Positions 1 to 40,621 of a stretch of 40,621 nucleotides of DNA are shown here, piece by piece. The DNA is taken from sequence record PX596819.2; one strand, given 5' to 3'. Position 1 is the stretch's first letter; every line of letters begins with the position of its first letter. The notes beneath the pieces were generated by a model. That model made no database searches. It was given only the letters and a program-made list of their open reading frames with translations, and was not told where the DNA came from. The position numbers and the translations under genes are program-made. Source of the stretch: a phage.

Positions 1-180
1 AGAGACTCAGAGACAGACCCATAGTCCCAACCTATCGTCTCCACCACCACCGATAGTCATGACCTATCGTTGACCTGAAGTCTTGACAATCGGTCCAACC
101 TTATGATAGACTTGGGTATGGCCTTTGGTCCGGACTGAAAGAGGGACTATGGGGATACTTGAGGTTCTTGAACTGTGAGA
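1..180 (-). repeat. Terminal-repeat-like region (single copy in this window); minus-strand reading begins TCTCACAG and ends GAGTCTCT at window position 1
   Basis: Minus strand of 173-180 reads TCTCACAG, as at the start of the T7 terminal repeat; it lies just beyond gene 19.5 and is flanked by ACTGTAGG-type short repeats. Window start and end are not identical, so the repeat is present once. Confidence 0.4.
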
Positions 181-204
181 TGTGGTCTCAAACTTTTGGT
201 CCAA

Positions 205-400
205 AACTCATCGTCACTACTGTAGGCCACAGCCACTGTAGGTCAAGGACCGTAGGTCAGGCGACACTAGGATAGACCAATAAGTAGGATGACCCTAAGT
301 GAGCTTCTATTAAGGTGTTACCTAAAGTCCTTGACTACAGTAGCTAAGGTCAGTAGAGTAGCGTCAGCTATGAACTGACCTTAGGTCCGTCTTTCGTTGA
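205..400. repeat. Array of short degenerate repeats (ACTGTAGG / CCTAAGG / CCTAAAG-like) next to the terminal repeat
   Basis: Repeated cactgtagg, accgtaggtc, gaccctaagt, cctaaagtcc, gaccttaggtcc motifs visible in sequence; analogous to the short repeat arrays flanking the T7 terminal repeat. Confidence 0.4.
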
Positions 401-417
401 TTGTTACCATGATTGCG

Positions 418-576
418 TTAACCACACTGAGACACCAGAGAACATACGAGAGTCTCGACCCACCCGACCCACTGACTTCCAGCAGTAATGCCAGCAGCAA
501 GTAGAACAGCAGCAAGAAACCTGTATGTAGCTCGATTGGTCGCCAGAGCTTTAAGTACAGCTTTGGTCTTTGCCAT
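418..576 (-). CDS. Small hydrophobic protein at the gene 19.5 position (52 aa)
   Basis: ATG preceded by GGAGGT; lies between the terminase gene and the terminal repeat, as gene 19.5 does in T7. Assigned by position only. Confidence 0.35.
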   Translation of the reverse strand: MAKTKAVLKALATNRATYRFLAAVLLAAGITAGSQWVGWVETLVCSLVSQCG

Positions 577-756
577 ATGCTACATACCTCCTGTATCTAT
601 GGTCGGTGACTATCTGTATTGGAGGGATTATGATTAATATCACCCTCCTTCCATCGGTGCAATCCTTAGGTAAGAACTCGGAGTCTGCCTCCTAAGGTCT
701 TGCATAAAGTCTGCATATGTATATTCACTACAGTAATACTATAAGTAACCATTGGT

Positions 757-18529: not shown

Positions 18530-19489
18530 CTACAGGCTTGAGGCTGCTACCTTAGCGCGAACTTCCATCGTGTACTTAGCGTCACGCAGGTATCGCGGGT
18601 CACTCATAGCCTTAATCATGTCAGCCTTGGAGCTGAATGCTTCGGTCTTAGGAGACTTAGGTGCTACCACAGGTTTAGCCTGAGTGGTGATGGTACGCTT
18701 AGGTTTAACACCTACAGCTTTACCCAGAGTCTTTCCAGCCAGATTGAGCAGAGCTTTGGTAGTCGCAATGTCCTTACGAACGATAGCAGCTTCAAGTGCT
18801 TCACGAGTTGACGGGTCGTTTGACTCAAGGTGGTACAGGATTCGATTAAACTGTTCAGCACCACCAGCGTAGCGAACCACACCAGCAGCATACTGTTCAG
18901 CCAGAGCTTCCTGACCCCGTACAAACGAATCTACGAAACGCTTGGTGTAACCTGCTTCCTGCAACTTAGCGTAGGATGCGTCAGACAGCTTACCGTCCTT
19001 GGCGTATTCAGCCTTGATAGCGGTAATTTCATCAGCAGTGACCTTGCCAGCTTCTACAGCAGAAGACACCATGTCGTCGAATGCAGCTTCGTTTTCATCC
19101 AGAGCGGTGACACTTTCGGTCAGATCTTTTGGTGCATCACCTAGTTCGATGAACTCAGGCTGCTCACCATCGGTCTCAGACTCTTCGTCATCTGACTCGT
19201 GGTCTTCTTCACCTTCAGTCTCTTCGACGTTCCCGTCTTCTTCGGTCGCCTCTTCGTTTTCGGCTTCCAGTTGCTTGAAGGTAATAGCGTCGTCGCCATC
19301 ACGAACAGCTACGTCCTGTTCAAGCATAGACTTCTGGTGTTCGTTCAGGTCCTCAACGGAACCAGTGATTGCATTAGAGCTAACGCCGAACTCGGCATAA
19401 ACTGATTGAGACATTAAGTCGTTCTCCTTTAAGTCGTTAATAGGAAACACAACAACCTGCCAGTCAGTTACGGCTGGCCATGCGTTCAC
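18530..19489 (-). CDS. gp9: Scaffolding protein (gp9)
   Basis: 319 aa, highly acidic with Glu/Asp runs; position between portal and capsid. Confidence 0.85.
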   Translation of the reverse strand: MNAWPAVTDWQVVVFPINDLKENDLMSQSVYAEFGVSSNAITGSVEDLNEHQKSMLEQDVAVRDGDDAITFKQLEAENEEATEEDGNVEETEGEEDHESDDEESETDGEQPEFIELGDAPKDLTESVTALDENEAAFDDMVSSAVEAGKVTADEITAIKAEYAKDGKLSDASYAKLQEAGYTKRFVDSFVRGQEALAEQYAAGVVRYAGGAEQFNRILYHLESNDPSTREALEAAIVRKDIATTKALLNLAGKTLGKAVGVKPKRTITTQAKPVVAPKSPKTEAFSSKADMIKAMSDPRYLRDAKYTMEVRAKVAASSL

Positions 19490-23692: not shown

Positions 23693-23973
23693 TGCTTGAC
23701 CTCGAATCGCAGGTTGGACACGCCGAACTGGTGATCATCAAAGGCGTACATCAGCTCCTTCTTGACGTACTTCTTGACGGCAATCTCAATGGCAGACTCA
23801 GGGCCTGACTCGATTGCTGCTTTGACCATGGCAAACTGAAGTCCATCCAGCTTCTCACCCTCAGCGTAGGCTTTAGTAACCTCAGCCAATTGGCGACACA
23901 TGGTCTCTTCTTCTTTTGAGTTGACAACCATCTTCAGGTCGAAACTTACACGAATACGTTTAGTAATAGCCAT
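23689..23973 (-). CDS. gp5.5: gp5.5-like protein
   Basis: Track ORF starts at GTG (23991); I place the start at ATG 23973 (MAITKRIRVSFD), which overlaps the DNA polymerase stop as TAATG. Confidence 0.6.
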   Translation of the reverse strand: MAITKRIRVSFDLKMVVNSKEEETMCRQLAEVTKAYAEGEKLDGLQFAMVKAAIESGPESAIEIAVKKYVKKELMYAFDDHQFGVSNLRFEVKQ

Positions 23974-23975
23974 TA

Positions 23976-24128
23976 GTGACACTCCTTCCACGTTGGTCCA
24001 ATCTTACCTTCGGTATCAAGGACACATTTAAAGTTATAGAACTCACCCACCTTACGCATAGCAAGTTGAGCAATTTCGACTGTACGTTCTGCTATTTCTT
24101 GAGTACGACAAGCAATCTGTAACTCATC
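23976..24128 (-). CDS. gp5: DNA polymerase, 3' exon (C-terminal 51 aa: DELQIACRTQEIAERTVEIAQLAMRKVGEFYNFKCVLDTEGKIGPTWKECH)
   Basis: No start codon or RBS; translation continues the polymerase exactly where the upstream ORF stops, and resembles the T7 DNAP C-terminus (DEIQVGCRTEE...LDTEGKMGPNWAICH). Confidence 0.8.
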
Positions 24129-24728
24129 CTTTCTGTATTCTCCCATTACTGGAAGTGTCGGACTATATCATCAGTCTTTGAGGTGACTGTCTGGCGCTTC
24201 GGGTTACGTGGGAATCTCACCCACGGCCCTACTCCTTTCGGATAGTCTCTACGCCTTCCACTCTCTCTAATCCACCCACAGGCGGCTGAGAACGACACAT
24301 TGAATACTTCGGCTAACTTCGTTCCAGTACACCCAGTCTCTACCCAGTAGTCTCGTGCTTCTAGCTTCCTAGCAGCGTATCGCTCTTGGTTTGTCTTGAC
24401 TAAGTGTGAGTCCCGGTCTAATACTTGTAGATGTTCGACGTTGCAGCAAGCTCTATTATGACACTTGTGGTCTACTTCGAAACCTTCAGGTATTGGACCA
24501 TTAGCTTTAGTCCATAAAGTTCTATGATACATCTCTAGGACACCGTTAGTCCTCTTTCGGAAGTATCCATCCTGATTCAATTTATGTGACGTAGGGATTA
24601 TGCAGCCAGTCTCAGTGGCCTCAAGAATTAACTTCTTGCCTCTCATACATCCTCCCTATGGCTTGGCTCGGTATTGTCCCATTAGGAGTTCACCGAGTTC
24701 ACCAGATTTAATGTGCACCATGATGTTA
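24129..24728 (-). mobile_element. Intervening sequence (about 600 nt) in the DNA polymerase gene: putative group I intron carrying an HNH homing endonuclease ORF
   Basis: Polymerase reading frame is interrupted after ..AYMAWVH by an in-frame TAA and resumes at DELQ.. 600 nt downstream; the upstream exon ends in T and the insert ends in G (AAAG|GAT), as at group I intron boundaries; the insert encodes an HNH protein. Confidence 0.7.
24146..24646 (-). CDS. HNH homing endonuclease encoded inside the polymerase intervening sequence
   Basis: 166 aa with HNH motif EVDHKCHNRACCNVEHLQV and the upstream GYFRKR..YHRTLW..GPIP pattern typical of phage HNH endonucleases. Confidence 0.8.
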   Translation of the reverse strand: MRGKKLILEATETGCIIPTSHKLNQDGYFRKRTNGVLEMYHRTLWTKANGPIPEGFEVDHKCHNRACCNVEHLQVLDRDSHLVKTNQERYAARKLEARDYWVETGCTGTKLAEVFNVSFSAACGWIRESGRRRDYPKGVGPWVRFPRNPKRQTVTSKTDDIVRHFQ

Positions 24729-26744
24729 ATGCACCCATGCCATGTACGCGAAGTCTCCTTCCCAGCCGTGTACATACCCGGCCTCTTCGAGCATACGTTC
24801 AGTCTCAACAATCCAGTGCTTACAGACTACCGCACCATCACCTTGAAGTAAGGCGTTCAGTGCTGAGTGTGGAGACCGGATGTGAATGCGGCGACCGTCA
24901 AGTCCACGCAGCCAACGGCGTTTCCACTTAACGATGTTCTCTCCGTCAACCCACTTAGAGTCTGAGATTAACGTACTACTCACAGCTTCCCTGAGGTCCT
25001 TGATGGCTGGTGTACCCTCAATGAATTTCTTCATGAGAGCTGAACCTTCCTTCTTACCACCTCCTACTATCAGTCCAATCTTAGCGGCCCCTGCGCCATA
25101 CAGGAACGCATAGATGAACGTCTTAGCGTTGTTACGGAAAGCATCATGGTCGTGGTTAGACTTATCGCGTGGGACGTTAGGTGCTAACCCAGCGTTGACT
25201 GCGTTGGCCCAGTGGATGTCACCTTCGACCACAGTCTTCGCATAGTCACCACCATCAAACGGAGCCGCTCTGTTCCCCAGACAACGAAGCTCAAGACCTG
25301 AGGCATCCACACCTACTTGAATCCAAGGGTCTGGATTACCGTCCTTCTTGTTCCATGCTGCACCGAAAGCACCACGGCAAGTCTCACCATATGGAGCACC
25401 GTTAGCAGGGACCTGAGCCATGTTTGGTGAACTATGAGTAGCACGTCCGGTTACTGCCCCGCATGGGTTGATTGAACCATGCATACGTCCGTCTGGACCT
25501 ACAAGTTTCAACCATGCGTTCTTACCTTCAGCCGCCTGACCAATGCGCTTCTGGACTACCAGATACTCACGGACCAGCTCTACGCAAGCCTGAGCCTCTG
25601 CGTCTGGTAACTTAACGTGTTCTAACGTCTCGTCATCGACTACAGGTTTCCCGGTGTCAGTGAAGTCCACAGGCTCCCAACCACGCTCCATCAGAACTTT
25701 CGCTAAGTGGTCTCCGCTTCCCGGATTAAACTCAACGTAAGTGATAGGTGTGAACGGTGCTCCCTCCATCGTGTCTCGTGAGTCGAACTCACAAGGTTCC
25801 AGACCTAAGCGTTGAGCTTTGTTCTTCGGCTTCTTGAATACTGACCCGACCTTAGGATACACGACTCGCGGATACTTCGGAAGGTCCTTGCCTGTCCGTG
25901 GGTGCTTGAAGAACTCCTTGCCACCCTTCGGTGCATACCAGCTACCGAAAGTCGAACGCAGCTTGTCCAGCAGCTCTGCACGTTTGACGGTGAGTTCACG
26001 ATATAAGCCTTCGACCATCTCGGTGTTCATCGGGTAGCCGTTACGTTCCATCTTCGCACAGGTCCACGCAGCATCATGTTCCAGACGCAACGCATAAATC
26101 TGGTCGAAGGCGAACTGTTCAGACTGGAAGTAATACTTGTCAGTCAGGAACTTCTTGAACAACGCCAGTGTGACCACAACGTCTTGAACGTTATAGTCCA
26201 GCATCTCCTGAGACGGTAACAACCATTCGTCCCCAGCCTTATATTCGATACCTTCAGCCTTGCACTTGGCAACGTAATCGTGTTTGTATTCACCTTTCAT
26301 CTCACCAAGACGATAGCCCCAAGCCTCAAGAGACTGACGTCCCATCATCTTAGGTGGCAGACGACCAGCTTTCACCGCGCCCATGTCTGAGAACTTAATG
26401 TTTGGATACATCAAGCGCCCCAGCACCAAGGTATCAATCATCTTGTGTTTCGGGAAGTTAAAACGTTTCCCAAAGTACAGACGTTTCAGCTTGTCAATAG
26501 CAGGGACGTCATAGTTTATACCATTATGGAAGACAAGCATACCATCAGGTGATGCGGCAATCTCTTCCACTTTATGCACATACTCTTTGAAGCCACCGAC
26601 GATACCGACCATCGGAGCTACCCCATACTTAATGGTCTCATTCGACTCGGCGTTAATCAGGACCCCGCAGTGGAACTGGGAGACTGTATCAAGGAGACCG
26701 TTTGTCTCGATGTCAGAACACCAGATACTCTTAAGGTCAAACAT
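24729..26744 (-). CDS. gp5: DNA polymerase (family A, T7 gp5-like), 5' exon
   Basis: Strong resemblance to T7 DNAP throughout (DIETNGLL, FHCGV, MDYNVQDVVVT, KNKAQR, GRATHSSPNMAQVP, DASGLELRC, FAYMAWVH). Start placed at the internal ATG with GGAGGA 6 nt upstream (MFDLKSIW); the track ORF begins earlier at 26780. Confidence 0.93.
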
Positions 26745-26765
26745 GGTTAATCCTCCGTTTAGTCT

Positions 26766-26806
26766 AATCATAAAGGCCACTCGATGTGAATGACCTTGAG
26801 TCTAGA
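26766..26806 (-). other. Conserved hairpin motif (copy 2 of 3), candidate RNase III site (R4.7-like position)
   Basis: Same motif as at 3144 and 34998; lies between genes 4 and 5. Confidence 0.4.
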
Positions 26807-29495: not shown

Positions 29496-29834
29496 CTAAC
29501 TTACTGAGTATTTTTCAGCCATAAACTTAAGGGTCTCGCTTGAGGTGCGAATATCCCTAACGTCCTCTTCAGTTAGTTTTAAATTAAATGTCCTACATAC
29601 TGAGCAGTCCATCATGTTTTCTTCCTGAGTCCCCAGCTCAAGGTGCTCAATGTTTACGCATGCACGGTTATCACACTTGTGTCTTACGACAAGACCTCCC
29701 GGTATAGCACCATTGGTCTCTATCCAAGCGGCTCGATGAGCACCCATAGATTGGCCACGGAATTTACGTCTACCATAGCCATTCTTATTGCGACTATTAG
29801 TCCACTCGATGCAGTCACTTTCCATTGTAAACAA
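29496..29834 (-). CDS. HNH endonuclease (free-standing)
   Basis: CIEW..NGYGRR..AHRAAWIETNGAIPGGLVVRHKCDNRACVNIEHLELGT is a typical phage HNH pattern; C-terminal LTEEDVRDIR segment. Confidence 0.8.
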   Translation of the reverse strand: MFTMESDCIEWTNSRNKNGYGRRKFRGQSMGAHRAAWIETNGAIPGGLVVRHKCDNRACVNIEHLELGTQEENMMDCSVCRTFNLKLTEEDVRDIRTSSETLKFMAEKYSVS

Positions 29835-30288: not shown

Positions 30289-30737
30289 TTAACTCCTTTC
30301 TTCTTGGGAATGAGTATACCTGAAGGCAGATGTACAGTCGCCTCTCGGAGCCACTCAACCGGGATGAACTTATCGGCATACTTAAAGCCGTTCTTTTCGC
30401 ACCATGCGCCATACGTGGTTGGAGACCCTTTGTATAACTTGGAGCGGGAACTTGAGAACACGAACCGAATGTCTAACTCAGGGTGCTGTTCTTTAATCAA
30501 TAAGTGCTTCTTACGGTCTTCCACTGCGAAGATTCCCTTGGTCTCCACAATGATGCCATTTGGTAGCACAAAGTCTGGACAATAGGTATGAAGGGATTGA
30601 GGGATTGTGTACGCTATTTTATACATCTCGTACTCAGCCTTAACCCCGTTCTTCTCCAGCCACTCTTGGTTTTTTGCTTCCAGTCCAGACCGATAGATTC
30701 CTACCGAGTGTCCCCTACTCATGCTACGTGTCGCCAT
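30285..30737 (-). CDS. gp3: Endonuclease I (Holliday junction resolvase, gp3)
   Basis: 150 aa; HTYCPDFVLPNGIIVETKG, DRKKHLLIKEQHPELDIRFVFSSSRSKLYKGSPTTYG resemble T7 gp3. Confidence 0.93.
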   Translation of the reverse strand: MATRSMSRGHSVGIYRSGLEAKNQEWLEKNGVKAEYEMYKIAYTIPQSLHTYCPDFVLPNGIIVETKGIFAVEDRKKHLLIKEQHPELDIRFVFSSSRSKLYKGSPTTYGAWCEKNGFKYADKFIPVEWLREATVHLPSGILIPKKKGVK

Positions 30738-31168
30738 GTTTCTCTCCTTAGTATCTTACCTATTGTTGGCTGAGACACTCCGTAGATTGTAGCGAGTTGT
30801 CGCTGAGTAAGGCTCGAAGACCTAATTTCCTTGACTTTAGTGTCAGTAAGTTTGGACATACCGCACTTCTCTCCCGGAACATGAGGAGGGTTTACACCGC
30901 GCCCCTTGTTACGCATGTCCTGAAGGTTATCCAATTGGGTCCCTACAGTAAGATGCTCAGGGTTACAACACAGCGGAGTATCACAGGTGTGTAACAGAAC
31001 GCCATTAGGTTCTTCACCTGTAATCAGCTCGTAGGCTACGCGATGTGCAAGCATGGTTTTTCCATTGTGCCTAATCTGACCGTAGCCTTTGTTGTTAACG
31101 CAGCCAGTGAAAAGCCAGCAGCTACCTGAAACCACAAGTCGCTGCTTAAGGCTTTCTACTGTAGCCAT
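30719..31168 (-). CDS. HNH endonuclease with C-terminal HTH (free-standing)
   Basis: CWLFTG..NKGYGQI..AHRVAYELITGEEPNGVLLHTCDTPLCCNPEHL; C-terminal LTQRQLATIYGVSQPTIGKI helix-turn-helix. Confidence 0.8.
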   Translation of the reverse strand: MATVESLKQRLVVSGSCWLFTGCVNNKGYGQIRHNGKTMLAHRVAYELITGEEPNGVLLHTCDTPLCCNPEHLTVGTQLDNLQDMRNKGRGVNPPHVPGEKCGMSKLTDTKVKEIRSSSLTQRQLATIYGVSQPTIGKILRRETWRHVA

Positions 31169-35131: not shown

Positions 35132-35362
35132 TCATTTGGTTGCCTCTTCCCGTAGGGCCTTCTCGTGTGACCACTGTATTACCTGAATCAGCTCCTTCTG
35201 GCTGATACATTTGGCCTTAGCCGTTCCAGTCGGTACCATAGTCACCTTGACCAGACCTTTACCCGCCACTGTGGTTACGGTAACTACCTTGTTGCCACCA
35301 GATACGTTTGATACACGGTGTGCGAATTGCATGTTGTCTCTCCTGTTGTTAAGCGAATGCAA
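35132..35362 (-). CDS. Hypothetical small protein between gene 1 and the phi1.1 promoter (gene 1.05-like position)
   Basis: 76 aa ORF with TTG start overlapping the RNAP stop by 14 nt; an internal ATG (MQFAHRV..) is also possible. Weak. Confidence 0.3.
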   Translation of the reverse strand: MHSLNNRRDNMQFAHRVSNVSGGNKVVTVTTVAGKGLVKVTMVPTGTAKAKCISQKELIQVIQWSHEKALREEATK

Positions 35363-38030
35363 AGTCTGAAGACAAGATGTCTTCGATATTCAGTTTACCT
35401 TTCTTCGGAAGCTCAGGCAACTTGTCGCGCTGGCTCTCGTGAAGCTGGTACTCGAACTGCTCGTAGAAGTCGAGCAGCACATCGTTGTCGCGGTAGGTCT
35501 CGACCATCGTCTCACGGACACCACGGAACAGATACTCAGCATCAGCAGGAATGGTCCCGAAGCTATCGTGAATAACTGCGAATGACATCACACCATACTT
35601 GCGGTGAGTGTGGACTACAGTCTTGCGGAGGTGGCTGCCATCTTGTGAGTGAACGAAGTTCGGGCTAATGCCTGACTCCTGCTTGTGCTTGTCCAGCTCT
35701 TTCTTCGTGCCTTTATTGACTGTAGGTTGAAGGTTAAATGACCCTAAGAACATCAGGTTCAGACGCGTGGTATCCTTCTTGCGGTATTCCTGCCAGACCG
35801 GGAAACCATCAGGTGTTACCCAGTGTACCGGAAGGCAAGGCTTCAGGATTTCACCAGTTTTCTTGTCCTTCACCTCAGCAGCCAGCAGCTTGGCAGCACC
35901 TTGAAGCCACTTCATCGCGTCTACCGCAGCAACCACGGTCACACTCACAGCCTCCCAGATCATCTTAGCCATGAAGCGAGACGCTTGTCTTGGTTCAGTG
36001 AACATAGCGCCAGACCCTGAGTCAATCGCGGGCATCACGATGTCCTCGTACACTTGGTCTGCGAAGCCATACTCTTTCGACCCGTAGGCCAGAGTCATGA
36101 CCGAACGCTTAGTGACCTTGCGTGACATGCCGTAGGTCAGCCACTGACGGGCCAGCTCTCGTGTCCCCAGCTTGAGACGTTCGGTAATCTCACCAGTTTT
36201 CTTGTCCTCGTGAGTCACCATCTCGTTGTCCGTACCGTTAACCAGCAGGACTTTAAGCTCCTCCTCAATGCGGTCAGACACAATGCGGTAGATGTCTTGG
36301 ACCTTACCGGATGGAGTTAGGTTTACTGCATGTCCACCGATGTGGTCACGAAGCATCGCGCTGAAGTGCTGAATACCAGAGCAGGACCCGTCGAACGCTA
36401 TTGGCAGCGAACATGAGTAAGACAGTCCGTGGTGCATTACGCCAGCATACTCGAAGCAGAACGCTAGGAAGCAGAACGGAGAGTCTAACTTGCCCCACCA
36501 CTCAATGCTATCCATCGGTGCTTTGGCAGCAGCCATGATGTTGTCGTGGTTGTCTTCCACCCACTTGATGCGCTCCTCGAAGGTGACTTTATCGACACCC
36601 GCACAGTTTGCACCGTGGACCTTCAGCCATTTGAAACCATCAGCACCAATAGGCTTACCGACTGCCAGAGTCAGTAGACCCTTCTGCATGTCGTTACCCT
36701 GAGGGTTGAACATCGGCACAGCGTAGACGCGACCGCGCCAGTCCATGTTGTACGGGAACCAGATGGCCTTGAACTGAGAGAACTTGTTCGCTTGGTTGAC
36801 GATAAAGCTCAATGATAATCTGCGTGACTGTCTGGCCTTCTCGCGGCGATAGATGCCAGCAGCAGCCTTCTTCCACGCCTTGAGGTCCTCTTCAGTCTCT
36901 CCCACATAGTCTTCAGGCTTCAGTGGTTCCATCTGAGGGATGTCGTCAATAGGCGTGTTGTTCAGCTTCTCGACCATGTTCACTACGTCCAGCACCTTCT
37001 TGTTCACTTTCCAAGGTGTATTCTGGATGATGTTCACAGCGTCATAGACTTCAGGCATGTACACGTCTTCGTAACGTGCTACCGCAGACTTAGACCCTAA
37101 GCGAATCAATGGTAACGGTCTGCGACCTTTGGCCCAGTAACCACCGCCTACGACACCCGTCCACGGCTTAGGTGGAACGACGCACGGTTGGTAGACTGGC
37201 GCGATACCTGCAAGGCTGAAGCCACGTTGCGCCATCTTCTTGACCCAGAAGTCTGACAGGTGGACCATCTCAACATCAGCCGCTGCATTGCCAGCACCAT
37301 AACGCTTAAGCTCGACCAGTTGTGTAGACTGTATGACAATCTCAAGCATCTTGATGCCGACGTGTACCGCTTCTGTAGGACTCCAAGTACCCCACGCATC
37401 TTCCAGTTGGCCTTGCTCCAGCATGGAGGTCTCAACCGCTTGCATGTAGGCTTTCTTGTAGGATACCCCTGCTCGCTTGTTCAGGTTCTCAGCAATCGCC
37501 TTCTTGAAGTGCTCCTGCTCCTTATCACGGATGCGGCCGAAGCGGATTTCATCTTCCAGTGTGCGACCTATCGCGGATGCCATAGGAGTTATCGGAATGC
37601 CTTCAGGCTTGACCAGCTTGCTGAGGATGACTTTCAGTATGATGATCGCAGCAGACTCCGCAGAGATTAGCAGAGAGCGGTCTTTTACAGCCTTCTCGTC
37701 AGTGCTCAGCATGGTAAACGCTACGCTTGGACGCGAGGTCGATGACTTACCGTCCGGGCCTTCATGCCACTCACGGAAAGCCTTAGCGATGGTCGGAACC
37801 AGCGTTTGCATCAAAGGTTTGGCGACCTGATTGTCTGCCAGTTCCCCTCGCTCGGTCTGGCGCTCAAGGTTCTTGATGAAACGTCGCTCGCCTTCAGTGT
37901 ATGCCTCATGCTCAAGCTGAAGCTGTTTGACTGCAAGGTCTTGCCCGTAGTGGTTGGCCAGCAGGTTAAACGGCTCAATGGCGTTCGACACATCAGAGAA
38001 GTCGTGTTTGTCAATAGAGATGACGCTCAT
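35349..38030 (-). CDS. gp1: Single-subunit DNA-directed RNA polymerase (T7 gp1-like)
   Basis: 893 aa vs 883 in T7; ends ..DFAFA like T7 RNAP; AAGGA 8 nt upstream of the ATG. Confidence 0.97.
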   Translation of the reverse strand: MSVISIDKHDFSDVSNAIEPFNLLANHYGQDLAVKQLQLEHEAYTEGERRFIKNLERQTERGELADNQVAKPLMQTLVPTIAKAFREWHEGPDGKSSTSRPSVAFTMLSTDEKAVKDRSLLISAESAAIIILKVILSKLVKPEGIPITPMASAIGRTLEDEIRFGRIRDKEQEHFKKAIAENLNKRAGVSYKKAYMQAVETSMLEQGQLEDAWGTWSPTEAVHVGIKMLEIVIQSTQLVELKRYGAGNAAADVEMVHLSDFWVKKMAQRGFSLAGIAPVYQPCVVPPKPWTGVVGGGYWAKGRRPLPLIRLGSKSAVARYEDVYMPEVYDAVNIIQNTPWKVNKKVLDVVNMVEKLNNTPIDDIPQMEPLKPEDYVGETEEDLKAWKKAAAGIYRREKARQSRRLSLSFIVNQANKFSQFKAIWFPYNMDWRGRVYAVPMFNPQGNDMQKGLLTLAVGKPIGADGFKWLKVHGANCAGVDKVTFEERIKWVEDNHDNIMAAAKAPMDSIEWWGKLDSPFCFLAFCFEYAGVMHHGLSYSCSLPIAFDGSCSGIQHFSAMLRDHIGGHAVNLTPSGKVQDIYRIVSDRIEEELKVLLVNGTDNEMVTHEDKKTGEITERLKLGTRELARQWLTYGMSRKVTKRSVMTLAYGSKEYGFADQVYEDIVMPAIDSGSGAMFTEPRQASRFMAKMIWEAVSVTVVAAVDAMKWLQGAAKLLAAEVKDKKTGEILKPCLPVHWVTPDGFPVWQEYRKKDTTRLNLMFLGSFNLQPTVNKGTKKELDKHKQESGISPNFVHSQDGSHLRKTVVHTHRKYGVMSFAVIHDSFGTIPADAEYLFRGVRETMVETYRDNDVLLDFYEQFEYQLHESQRDKLPELPKKGKLNIEDILSSDFAFA

Positions 38031-38127: not shown

Positions 38128-38520
38128 TTACTTGCATATCAGCTGGTTAGCGTGGAGATGACTGAAGTCACCGTGAGTCGTGTGCTTGATGGTTGACCGT
38201 TGGTCTATCGCCTTCCAGCCTGAGACCAGAAGTTTACCATCGTCGGTGATTGGTCGTCCACCATACGCCAGACACATCTGCTCGGACTTATGGCCCTCGG
38301 CCAGGAGTCGTGCTTGCAGAACCCGGTCGCGCTCCTGCTGTTGACGTGCGGTATGTGACGAGTGGCGATGAACATAAGCGGTCTTGTTCCCTGTCTTCTC
38401 CCAGTAGTTGCGACCGCGAGGGTCCGTGCCGACGTACTTCCACTCTACGCCGTTCTTATCAGTGAATGTGTGAAGCGATGTGATTGAGTCCATTGCATGT
38501 ACCAGATTTGCCATATTCAT
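38128..38520 (-). CDS. Hypothetical early protein (130 aa), His-rich, immediately upstream of RNAP
   Basis: Start overlaps the upstream ORF stop (TAATG); no motif I recognise. Confidence 0.5.
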   Translation of the reverse strand: MNMANLVHAMDSITSLHTFTDKNGVEWKYVGTDPRGRNYWEKTGNKTAYVHRHSSHTARQQQERDRVLQARLLAEGHKSEQMCLAYGGRPITDDGKLLVSGWKAIDQRSTIKHTTHGDFSHLHANQLICK

Positions 38521-38723
38521 TACAGTTTACTCCCAAGAGTTGCTATATCCCAGACGTTCGCTAAGTTGCGCATGAATCGTCCGTTAGGTTGACGCACAGT
38601 CCAGCGACCCAGACGTACATAGTTGAATTTGTAGACTTTACGCGCTTTGTGGATGTCTTTCACCAGCACGTAGGCGATAAGTCCATAGCCTATGGCTATC
38701 AATAGTGCAAGACTCATAGTCAT
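38520..38723 (-). CDS. Small early membrane protein (67 aa, N-terminal TM then basic tail)
   Basis: MTMSLALLIAIGYGLIAYVLV then KDIHKARKVYKF..; ATG overlaps the upstream mini-ORF stop (ATGA). The track shows a 106-aa TTG-initiated extension that I consider less likely. Confidence 0.45.
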   Translation of the reverse strand: MTMSLALLIAIGYGLIAYVLVKDIHKARKVYKFNYVRLGRWTVRQPNGRFMRNLANVWDIATLGSKL

Positions 38724-38824: not shown

Positions 38825-38899
38825 AGTTAACTCCTATCAATGCAAGTGGTAATCTTTGAGGCCACCTGTCAGTTAGATGACCTCTCGTCTATCACTCTC

Positions 38900-39271
38900 C
38901 TACACTTCTACCGCGACGGTTGTCATCTTGGTTACAGTAAGTCCACCAGCCAGCTCAACTGCATAGCGTATCGCCTCGTCTTTGGACCTGAAATCTTTAC
39001 CAGCAAGGTGGTAAATGTCGCCGTTTATTACTTTGGCTGGCTTGCGGCTAACTGCTATAGCGTTGCTAAGGGAAAGCTCACCCTTCGACCACTGAGAGTG
39101 CCAGCGGCATACGCTCTTAGGAGATACGTTGAAGTCACTGGCCACCTTCGCAAGCATAGAGTCAAGTCTAGAAGAGCTACATTGAGGCTGGCGCACCAAG
39201 TCGTATGCCTTTGCTACTCGTATTTTAAAATCTACCGTGTAGCTGTTGCGGCTTTTAGTAGTTGTGTTCAT
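38900..39271 (-). CDS. Early helix-turn-helix DNA-binding protein (IS3-type transposase HTH-like N-terminus)
   Basis: YTVDFKIRVAKAYDL...LAKVASDFNVSPKSVCRWHSQW matches the pattern I associate with HTH_Tnp_1-type domains; no transposase catalytic ORF follows. Confidence 0.45.
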   Translation of the reverse strand: MNTTTKSRNSYTVDFKIRVAKAYDLVRQPQCSSSRLDSMLAKVASDFNVSPKSVCRWHSQWSKGELSLSNAIAVSRKPAKVINGDIYHLAGKDFRSKDEAIRYAVELAGGLTVTKMTTVAVEV

Positions 39272-39344
39272 GAGTGTATCCTTTGTTAATTAATTAAATA
39301 AGTGACAATCAGTCAGGCCACCAGCATTGATGACCTGTAGTCTA

Positions 39345-39494
39345 TCACTTAGCGTGCAAACTGTCGTGTATGCGCTTGCGGCCATCATAGACCGCTTTCA
39401 GGTGACGCATAGCGGCATCATGGTTTAATTGCCCGTTCTTGACCATAATCCGGGCGTTGGTTACGTGGTGTTGACAGAGACCATAAGTTACCAT
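39345..39494 (-). CDS. Possible small basic ORF (about 49 aa) coupled to the end of the kinase-like gene
   Basis: ATG lies 2 codons before the upstream stop with GAGGTGAGG upstream; fills an otherwise empty 216 nt gap. Weak. Confidence 0.25.
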   Translation of the reverse strand: MVTYGLCQHHVTNARIMVKNGQLNHDAAMRHLKAVYDGRKRIHDSLHAK

Positions 39495-40012
39495 CTTGAT
39501 GACCTCACCTCTTGCAGCTTGGAAACAAGGAAGAAGCAGTCCACCAGTATCAGCTTACCATTAATAGCCCGTACATTTCGTGGGCTTATCTCAAATTGAA
39601 TGTCTGACCCGAAGTTAGCGCAAGCATCCAGCGCCATCAGCACATCCATCAGACCTTCCCGCACAGTCTCAGTATCAGACCTGTCGTGTGCAGCTTGGAA
39701 TATCTCGTACCACCTGTGATACAGTTCAGCAGGTCTAGAGAATACAGGAGACCGTGAGAAGCAATCCCGCAGCACCTGATAGAGTTGCCACTGGTCATCA
39801 TCTAAATGCGCTTTGAGACCTCGTGTTGGTGGTATGTAGTCCATCTCATACGTGCCTACCTCAATCATCTTGACTTCAGGGAACAGTGGAGACTCAGGGA
39901 ACCATCCCCACGCCATACACTCCTTTATCGGGTCAGAAGAGACCAGAAGAACACGCTTCCCGCAATCCTTCAGGTAGCACTTAGTGAACGCGCCTTTGCC
40001 TATCAGTTTCAT
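39488..40012 (-). CDS. First early gene: gp0.7-like protein kinase domain protein (174 aa), lacking a shutoff-domain extension
   Basis: Gly-rich loop KLIGKGAFTKCY, then FGSDIQFEISPRNVRAINGKLILVDCFF, resembling the T7 gp0.7 kinase-domain segments LGNGHFSAAY and [25 protein letters not shown] as I recall them; AGGA 8 nt upstream of the ATG. Confidence 0.4.
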   Translation of the reverse strand: MKLIGKGAFTKCYLKDCGKRVLLVSSDPIKECMAWGWFPESPLFPEVKMIEVGTYEMDYIPPTRGLKAHLDDDQWQLYQVLRDCFSRSPVFSRPAELYHRWYEIFQAAHDRSDTETVREGLMDVLMALDACANFGSDIQFEISPRNVRAINGKLILVDCFFLVSKLQEVRSSRW

Positions 40013-40209
40013 GTTGTTTATCCTATAGTTAGTGACTATCAGTCAGGGCCTTCAGATGTAGACTCAAAGACCCTGTAGTTAATCACTATCGCTAGCAAGC
40101 TAGCTATCGGCGCACATTAAGAGTTTATCCAGATTGTTAAAGAGCACTCCCTTCAGTCAGAGGACTTCAGGTAGACCATTTCAGTGTTGGTCATCACCAT
40201 TGTTTCGAT

Positions 40210-40246
40210 GTGGTGCATACTACTTTAAGTCGGTACATCTTGTCAA
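40210..40246 (-). promoter_or_regulatory. Candidate host sigma70 early promoter (TTGACA-18 nt-TAGTAT)
   Basis: Minus strand TTGACAAGATGTACCGACTTAAAGTAGTAT about 200 nt upstream of the first early gene; perfect -35, good -10. Confidence 0.4.
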
Positions 40247-40497
40247 CTGCTTTCTGTCATCTGCCTGTTGTTCGTATGACTTATCAGGCTGTCTACTTAA
40301 CCGTGATGACCCGGCGTCTTCACTATCCGGTTGTTGCCGTGTCGTGTTGACGGAAGCTATTAGGCCATAGTCTAGACCTATAGTCAATAGGTAATTTGAA
40401 TTAATATCAATTAAGCTATCGTCGGCCCCATAGTGACTAAGAGGATATAGTCTTTGACTAAGATGTCTTCGACCTTAAGTCTATAGCTTTGTGTTTA

Positions 40498-40592
40498 TTA
40501 ACTGTAGGTCCTTGACTGTAGGCTGTGAGTGTCTTATGGTTGTGACTGTAGGTTAGTGAGACTGTAGGTTAGTGAGACTGTAGGTGTAGGAC
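40498..40592. repeat. Short direct repeats near the genome left end, including gactgtaggttagtga present about 2.5 times in tandem
   Basis: gactgtagg occurs five or more times in about 95 nt; analogous to the CCTAAAG-type repeats at the T7 left end. Confidence 0.5.
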
Positions 40593-40621
40593 GTAATGTT
40601 ATACTATATCACTATACAGAT

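Follow-up and report, generated by a model that had tools for sequence, protein, structure and literature searches.

Genome and early region

The window analysed here, the whole 40,621-nt stretch of sequence record PX596819.2 (40.6 kb), is the genome of a T7-like, Kayfunavirus-like phage, in reverse orientation. Compared with T7 ORF by ORF, it shows the usual gene order from gp1 through gp19; the RNA polymerase (RNAP) gene is on the minus strand (Table 1), and the left (early) end lies near position 40621. The nearest relatives include the Kayfunavirus phages YZ1, Penshu1, and GA2A, with ~90 to 92% identity over the early region. No direct terminal repeat common to both window ends was found (1..600 versus 40022..40621), and the window probably lacks one terminal repeat copy, since the YZ1 sequence continues for another ~180 bp at the early end. 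Short tandem repeats occur close to the early end.

The left-most early ORF encodes a 174-aa protein with the sequence quoted for it in an initial annotation made from the sequence alone. It is the first gene past a sigma-70-type promoter candidate; the regional count of such matches is not above that in shuffled sequences, so it is its position that supports the candidate. The sole ORF upstream on the same strand encodes 55 aa from a TTG start and overlaps the promoter region. Bulged hairpins between the early genes resemble the T7 early RNase III processing sites. Two of them, one 5′ of the 174-aa ORF and one at the end of the first early mRNA unit, are related copies, both matching a single element of phage pO2, and a third was seen further along the early region. 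The promoter candidate, the ribosome-binding site, the RNase III-like hairpins, and the location upstream of the RNAP gene together point to early expression of the 174-aa gene.

The five ORFs that precede the RNAP gene have predicted pI values of 5.9, 10.0, 9.7, 10.8, and 9.4, and none of them is acidic in the manner of Ocr; the 174-aa protein itself has a pI of 5.9 and 14% D+E. The only strongly acidic ORF genome-wide is the homologue of the gp9 scaffold. Searches of the whole window by tblastn detected neither T7 Ocr, pO2-type Ocr, T7 gp0.7, nor the stand-alone kinase of Dev2 (best E value, 0.67). The initial annotation had stated that an Ocr-like gene is missing and that the early region has no acidic Ocr-like ORF, and had noted, correctly, that gene 0.3 comes first in T7 and that T7 gp0.7 has 359 aa. 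Its factual parts all hold, because the checks on the ORF, its motifs, and the absence of Ocr and gp0.7 agree.

Three other small early ORFs were noted. The 123-aa ORF has weak helix-turn-helix matches (HTH_23, E value of 0.0024; BldC-type, E value of 0.0056). Over the C-terminal half it shares 85% identity with Dev2 gp0.2, from which it diverges in the N-terminal half, and it has the look of a mosaic DNA-binding protein made early. The 67-aa protein, encoded just 5′ of the RNAP gene, is hydrophobic, belongs to phrog_2385, and probably resides in the membrane. The 130-aa ORF matches phrog_7066 at residues 43 to 130 only, and its true start may therefore be internal.

Table 1. Positions of genes, regulatory elements, and motifs in the window
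Feature	Coordinates	Strand	Basis or detail
Short tandem CTACAGTCTCACTAAC-like repeats	near 40530..40590
Sigma-70-type early promoter candidate, TTGACA-18-TAGTAT	40217..40246	minus	Consensus scan, 10/12 matches
Bulged RNase III-like hairpin, 5′ of the 174-aa ORF	40024..40095	minus	−24.9 kcal/mol, z −4.39, 0/200 shuffles as stable
Shine-Dalgarno sequence AGGA	40021..40024	minus	Sequence reading; 8 nt 5′ of the ATG of the 174-aa ORF
174-aa ORF, phrog_11084 member	39488..40012	minus	ORF listing, ATG start
Gly-rich loop G-K-G-A-F-T, residues 5 to 10	39983..40000	minus	Between beta1 and beta2
Lys30-Glu31	39920..39925	minus	AlphaC-like helix after beta3; helix residues 27 to 33 in the AF2 model
Catalytic-loop equivalent F140-E-I-S-P-R-N146	39575..39595	minus	Aligned to gp0.7 FDMHSGN
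DFG equivalent L156-V-D158-C-F-F161	39530..39547	minus	Aligned to gp0.7 ITD213P
49-aa ORF, phrog_5058	39345..39494	minus	ATG within the 3′ end of the 174-aa ORF
Second RNase III-like hairpin, end of first early mRNA unit	39296..39356	minus	−24.1 kcal/mol, z −4.48
123-aa early ORF	38900..39271	minus	Weak helix-turn-helix matches
Third bulged hairpin, between early genes	~38850..38900	minus	z −2.4
67-aa ORF, phrog_2385	38520..38723	minus	Just 5′ of the RNAP gene
130-aa ORF	38128..38520	minus	Before the RNAP gene; phrog_7066 match
RNA polymerase gene	35349..38030	minus
gp7.7-like HNH ORF	31168..30719
gp7.7-like HNH ORF	29825..29496
DNA polymerase (T7 gp5 homologue) region	23973..26771	minus	Split into three ORFs
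681-aa ORF	26771..24726	minus	First piece of the split gp5 region
166-aa HNH endonuclease ORF	24646..24146	minus	Similar to T7 gp7.7; inside the split gp5 region
57-aa ORF	24146..23973	minus	Matches the gp5 C terminus; last piece
gp9 scaffold homologue	18530..19414		Strongly acidic

The phrog_11084 family

The 174-aa protein is a full-length member of phrog_11084 (E value of 6.5e-94; residues 1 to 174 against profile positions 2 to 170 of 170), and the same profile was matched by all 47 aligned homologues. An indexed search placed the family in 156 clusters at 90% identity, and an exhaustive profile search (E ≤ 1e-3) returned 751 representatives of 50%-identity clusters, nearly all of them stand-alone proteins of 155 to 200 aa. 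No fused domain was recognisable in the extended members. The family is present in 84 deposited phage records, among them those of Kayfunavirus, Dickeya Aarhusvirus, and Klebsiella Molineuxvirinae phages, siphovirus Seurat, Cellulophaga phage phi19:3, and Pseudomonas myoviruses of ~100 kb. In unrelated phage contigs the gene lies near operon starts among small unannotated genes, and no conserved partner gene was found there.

The label "serine/threonine kinase" exists for homologues in two Dickeya phage records and one UniRef entry, and no experimental or descriptive literature on the family was found. Pfam matched neither the 174-aa protein, the 47 homologues, nor eight extended homologues, a null result that says little because T7 gp0.7 itself is unmatched in the same Pfam copy. 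DUF6206 was matched weakly by three members (best E value, 0.028), NCBIfam gave no match, and sequence searches of the PDB, whether started from one sequence or from the profile, returned noise only.

Predicted fold

An AlphaFold2 (AF2) model built from the 47-sequence alignment is of very high confidence, with a pLDDT of 96.3 and a pTM of 0.90. In the model the elements follow one another as beta1, Gly-loop, beta2, beta3, an alphaC-like helix, beta4, beta5, and a hinge, and then three helices, a short strand, the catalytic loop, the DFG strand pair, and a terminal helix. The predicted structure thus has the bilobal core, five-stranded N-lobe sheet, alphaC helix, hinge, and helical C-lobe of a protein-kinase-like (PKL) fold. 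The protein begins directly at beta1, with strands at residues 2 to 5 and 9 to 13, and ends 16 residues past Asp158, where the model has one 13-residue helix and therefore neither an activation segment nor alphaF to alphaI. So modelled, it would be close to a bare nucleotide-binding and phosphotransfer core.

Foldseek searches of the PDB ranked mostly PKL folds at the top (APH(2″), CK2, RAF, choline kinase, CDKs, and Rio2), with ribosome recycling factor as a recurring non-PKL exception and no match with an E value under 1e-3. Against BFVD, a phrog_11084 member ranked first, followed by an uncharacterised Acinetobacter phage protein; the annotated kinases of the type of T7 gp0.7 (T7K) that were matched were A0A7L7SMK1 (3.9e-6), NahiliMali (2.1e-5), and IME278 (6.1e-5), and these are the nearest annotated viral structural neighbours of the 174-aa protein. 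A0A7L7SMK1 is listed among the T7K homologues in PMC13645617. The AF2 model and the Foldseek matches make the assignment to a protein-kinase-like fold a solid prediction, as the initial annotation's kinase-domain reading would have it, and the protein is very divergent from every solved structure.

Active-site residues

Conservation was scored over 263 diverse phrog_11084 homologues, down to ~30 to 45% identity. The two motifs quoted in the initial annotation, GKGAF (residues 5 to 9) and the catalytic-loop-like segment SDIQFEISPRNVRAINGKLILVDCFF (residues 136 to 161), show the strongest conservation in the family, which places them far beyond chance. Within the Gly-rich loop, G5 is kept in 95% of members, G7 in 99.2%, and F9 in 97%. 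The position of the kinase catalytic Asp is occupied by Glu141 in 263 of 263 members (100%), Ser143, Pro144, and Arg145 follow at 95 to 97%, and Asn146 reaches 99.2%; the +5 spacing from Glu141 to Asn146 is that of the kinase catalytic Asp to Asn. Asp158 (99.6%) lies 12 residues after Asn146, as expected of the DFG Asp, in a D-C/V-F-F motif with Phe160 at 98%, and is presumed to be the Mg-binding Asp. Beta3 is variable at positions 20, 22, and 24, so that no residue is conserved where kinases have the canonical beta3 Lys. Within the alphaC-like helix, residue 30 is Lys in 98.9% of members and Arg in the rest, and the adjacent Glu31 is kept in 93%.

The catalytic residues implied by a kinase assignment are therefore conserved in part: Asn146 and Asp158 are kept, whereas the catalytic-loop Asp is replaced by an invariant Glu and the beta3 Lys is missing. 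Lys30 is a candidate stand-in for that Lys, with a putative placement relative to the ATP site, and Glu141 is a putative catalytic base in place of Asp. The near-invariance of G7, K30, E141, N146, and D158 speaks for a site with a catalytic role, or with an obligatory role in nucleotide binding, and against a pseudokinase in decay.

Relationship to T7 gp0.7

The initial annotation had taken the protein for a stand-alone gp0.7-like kinase domain. The kinase-like fold and the register of the motifs agree with this reading; membership in the gp0.7 family does not hold. BLASTP found no similarity between the 174-aa protein and T7 gp0.7. None of the 47 phrog_11084 members matched the T7K phrogs (2828, 15752, and 18305), even at E ≤ 1, whereas the stand-alone gp0.7-type kinase of another Kayfunavirus, Cronobacter phage Dev2 gp0.5 (244 aa), matched them at 1e-53 to 1e-114. 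A match to the phrog kinase HMMs is how T7K homologues were defined in PMC13645617, and by that definition phrog_11084 lies outside the group. PF27024 is assigned to gp0.7 homologues in precomputed annotation and is absent from phrog_11084.

Profile comparison recovered a remote relationship. With hhalign, alignments of 47 and 9 sequences gave an E value of 0.0038 (probability, 9%), and alignments of 263 and 17 sequences gave 1.2e-4 (probability, 55%) over 134 collinear columns; reversed-sequence controls scored 13.7, with a probability of 0.1%. Targeted HMM-to-sequence tests gave 9 to 17 bits overall, and the best matches, at 15 to 17 bits in both directions, span the G-loop and the catalytic/DFG blocks. 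One further family, phrog_3809, was weakly matched by both phrog_11084 and T7K. The register was constant in every alignment: GKGAF with GNGHF (the gp0.7 loop being GNGHFS), FEISPRN with FDMHSGN, and LILVD with YITD.

By these sequence comparisons, phrog_11084 is a remote sister of the T7K kinase domain within the kinase-like fold, not a truncated copy of it. In T7-like phages both are early genes that precede the RNAP gene, and both encode a minimal kinase-like core that ends just past the DFG-equivalent Asp, with a G-x-G-x-F-S/T loop, a [D/E]-x4-N loop, and a Mg-binding Asp (presumed in phrog_11084) in the same register. They differ at the active site: Asp195 in the F-D-x-H-x-G-N catalytic loop is invariant in the T7K alignment but is Glu in phrog_11084; the invariant T7K K93 (V-I-K-V-G-F-K-K-E-D) lands in a gap of the profile alignment, phrog_11084 having no conserved beta3 Lys; and the D-C/V-F-F motif stands where T7K has DPV (PMC13645617). 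The 174-aa protein also has neither the ~65-residue N-terminal extension of T7K nor the C-terminal basic shut-off/DNA-binding domain of most members in Autographiviridae, although the latter is not strictly defining for T7K because Dev2 gp0.5 is likewise without it. The distribution differs as well, phrog_11084 being spread much more widely beyond Autographiviridae and coexisting with T7K in Aarhusvirus phages. The early operon of Dickeya phage Mysterion encodes both a phrog_11084 protein (gp02) and a full T7K with its shut-off domain (gp05, phrog_2828), which suggests that the two have non-redundant roles. The first gene of Mysterion (101-997), ahead of these two, encodes a 298-aa protein without any PHROG match.

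Exchange with Ocr

Nucleotide homology between the window and both pO2 and Escherichia coli phage JSS1 (KX689784.2) runs through the promoter region to ~40006-40028 and resumes at 39495, the first base past the 174-aa ORF. The gap holds an Ocr gene in each of these phages, of 167 aa in pO2 and 110 aa in JSS1. Because the homology breaks at gene boundaries, the slot expressed first holds either the 174-aa gene or Ocr, in exact exchange, and the different early-region strategy proposed in the initial annotation is borne out to this extent. The slot lies ahead of the conserved 49-aa gene, which is present in relatives with either the 174-aa gene or Ocr. Dev2 is without this cassette and carries its T7K-type kinase elsewhere, in a slot that follows its counterpart of the 123-aa ORF. 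The analogy between the 174-aa protein and Ocr (T7 gp0.3) is one of cassette position in these sister Kayfunaviruses only: the two share no sequence similarity, Ocr is highly acidic whereas the 174-aa protein is not, and the folds differ.

The early region of KX689784.2 (32500-39024) begins with an Ocr-like gene and contains no large kinase, and this record, the Kayfunavirus "Escherichia phage JSS1," was set aside as the carrier of JSS1_004, a kinase homologous to T7K. KX689784.2 and the JSS1_004 kinase study are cited together in a 2026 paper (PMC13522605); the kinase-bearing "Salmonella phage JSS1" is probably distinct from the GenBank "Escherichia phage JSS1."

Proposed function

We put the odds slightly above even (a probability of roughly 0.55) that the 174-aa protein is an immediate-early miniature kinase-fold phosphotransferase, with Glu as its catalytic base, that serves host takeover or defence evasion. 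ATP-Mg would be held by the Gly-loop, Asn146, and Asp158, and the invariant Glu141 would serve as the catalytic base instead of Asp. Lys30 on the alphaC-like helix would replace the canonical beta3 Lys in a WNK-like manner; WNK kinases borrow a Lys from elsewhere in its place. The 174-aa gene, at the leading genome end, would be the first that host RNA polymerase transcribes, within an RNase III-processed early message, and one or a few host targets would then be phosphorylated right after genome entry, disarming a defence or redirecting the host. Phosphorylation of host targets appears the most likely activity because the gene is the first transcribed and sits in the cassette slot of Ocr. A precedent is provided by T7K and JSS1_004, which use phosphorylation to disarm defences (PMC13645617, PMC12345140). 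Against an active kinase count the replacement of the catalytic Asp by Glu and the lost beta3 Lys, changes that are frequent in pseudokinases.

The Ser/Thr/Tyr content of the encoded proteins bears on several readings, as the early proteins of phages with T7K-type kinases are depleted in these residues (PMC13645617). This depletion was reproduced here for T7, with 12.6% in early, 14.1% in middle, and 15.6% in late proteins. The corresponding values in the window are 14.6%, 14.6%, and 16.7%, and the five pre-RNAP proteins have 16.0%; there is no early depletion in the window, in what is a low-power comparison confounded by phylogeny. The result weakly suggests that the 174-aa protein, were it a protein kinase, would probably lack the hyper-promiscuity of T7K.

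The foremost alternative, which we regard as unlikely though deserving of weight, is an enzyme of the APH/choline-kinase type, which phosphorylates a small molecule, or one with other nucleotide-dependent chemistry on the kinase fold, such as AMPylation; a metabolite, signalling nucleotide, or envelope component would be its target instead of proteins. The top PDB matches in Foldseek are of this kind, with APH(2″)-IIa/Ib (APH(2″) E value of 2e-3), corramycin phosphotransferase, and choline kinase (E value of 3e-2), and BFVD also returned choline/ethanolamine kinases; these enzymes share the D/E-x4-N plus Asp arrangement. However, at ~300 to 350 aa they include a large C-terminal lobe for substrate binding, which is missing here, and the TM scores are only 0.37 to 0.41. 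The end of the 174-aa protein 16 residues past Asp158 leaves it without the C-lobe elements that ePKs use on peptide substrates, which would fit a small substrate, but T7K, also without a C-lobe after DPV, is a protein kinase (PMC13645617), and T7K-type protein kinases are the nearest viral structural neighbours. The invariant Glu141 with the S-P-R triplet points to a specialised active site, the absence of early Ser/Thr/Tyr depletion is in line with a target other than protein, and coexistence with a promiscuous T7K-type kinase in Mysterion suggests a non-redundant job; against this, no conserved neighbour gene hints at a metabolite pathway.

We consider it improbable that the protein is a catalytically dead pseudokinase that acts by binding, as a stoichiometric inhibitor or as a nucleotide sensor or sponge, and whose function is nearer to that of Ocr than to that of a kinase. 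Two classic pseudokinase signatures are seen here, in that the canonical beta3 Lys is lost and another residue stands in for the catalytic Asp. Exchange in the same slot with Ocr, a stoichiometric inhibitor, and the undepleted Ser/Thr/Tyr content of the early proteins would also suit such a role. Nevertheless, G7, K30, E141, N146, and D158 are nearly invariant over ~260 divergent members, a pattern of catalytic constraint that is still compatible with obligatory nucleotide binding at a pseudokinase site.

The reading of the initial annotation, a bona fide gp0.7 (T7K) member minus its C-terminal shut-off domain, is largely refuted and very improbable: gp0.7-like motif order and register, an early location ahead of the RNAP gene, the shared ending shortly past the DFG-equivalent Asp, and the kinase label on Dickeya phage homologues speak for it, but the BLASTP and T7K phrog results, the missing PF27024 annotation, the active-site substitutions, the absent N-terminal extension, and the full T7K alongside in Mysterion speak against it.

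If the immediate-early phosphotransferase reading is extended to the whole family, phrog_11084 would comprise the smallest active kinase-fold enzymes, with a Glu base and an alphaC Lys, deployed as immediate-early anti-defence proteins functionally interchangeable with Ocr in many unrelated lineages; this generalisation is tentative and rather doubtful. The minimal effector kinases NleH1/OspG and the RIO kinases are the natural comparison. They keep the canonical Lys and catalytic Asp and more of the C-lobe, whereas the phrog_11084 proteins, at 155 to 180 aa, are smaller still and carry the Glu substitution. Phage kinases, namely, T7K and JSS1_004, have lately been shown to be broad anti-defence weapons, and phrog_11084 forms a second, far more widespread set of kinase-fold early proteins beside them, found in podo-, sipho-, and myoviruses of enterobacteria, Pseudomonas, and Cellulophaga. 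The family is of note for its size, its unusual active site (Glu for Asp and a relocated Lys), and its near-minimal length. If active, its members would define a new minimal kinase architecture, would suggest a second way of taking over the host, through phosphorylation or another nucleotide-dependent reaction, and could offer a compact tool for phage engineering.

Other features of the genome

The DNA polymerase gene, the homologue of T7 gp5, is split into three ORFs, with an HNH endonuclease ORF similar to T7 gp7.7 lying between the first piece and the ORF that matches the gp5 C terminus. Two more gp7.7-like HNH ORFs are present elsewhere in the window (Table 1).
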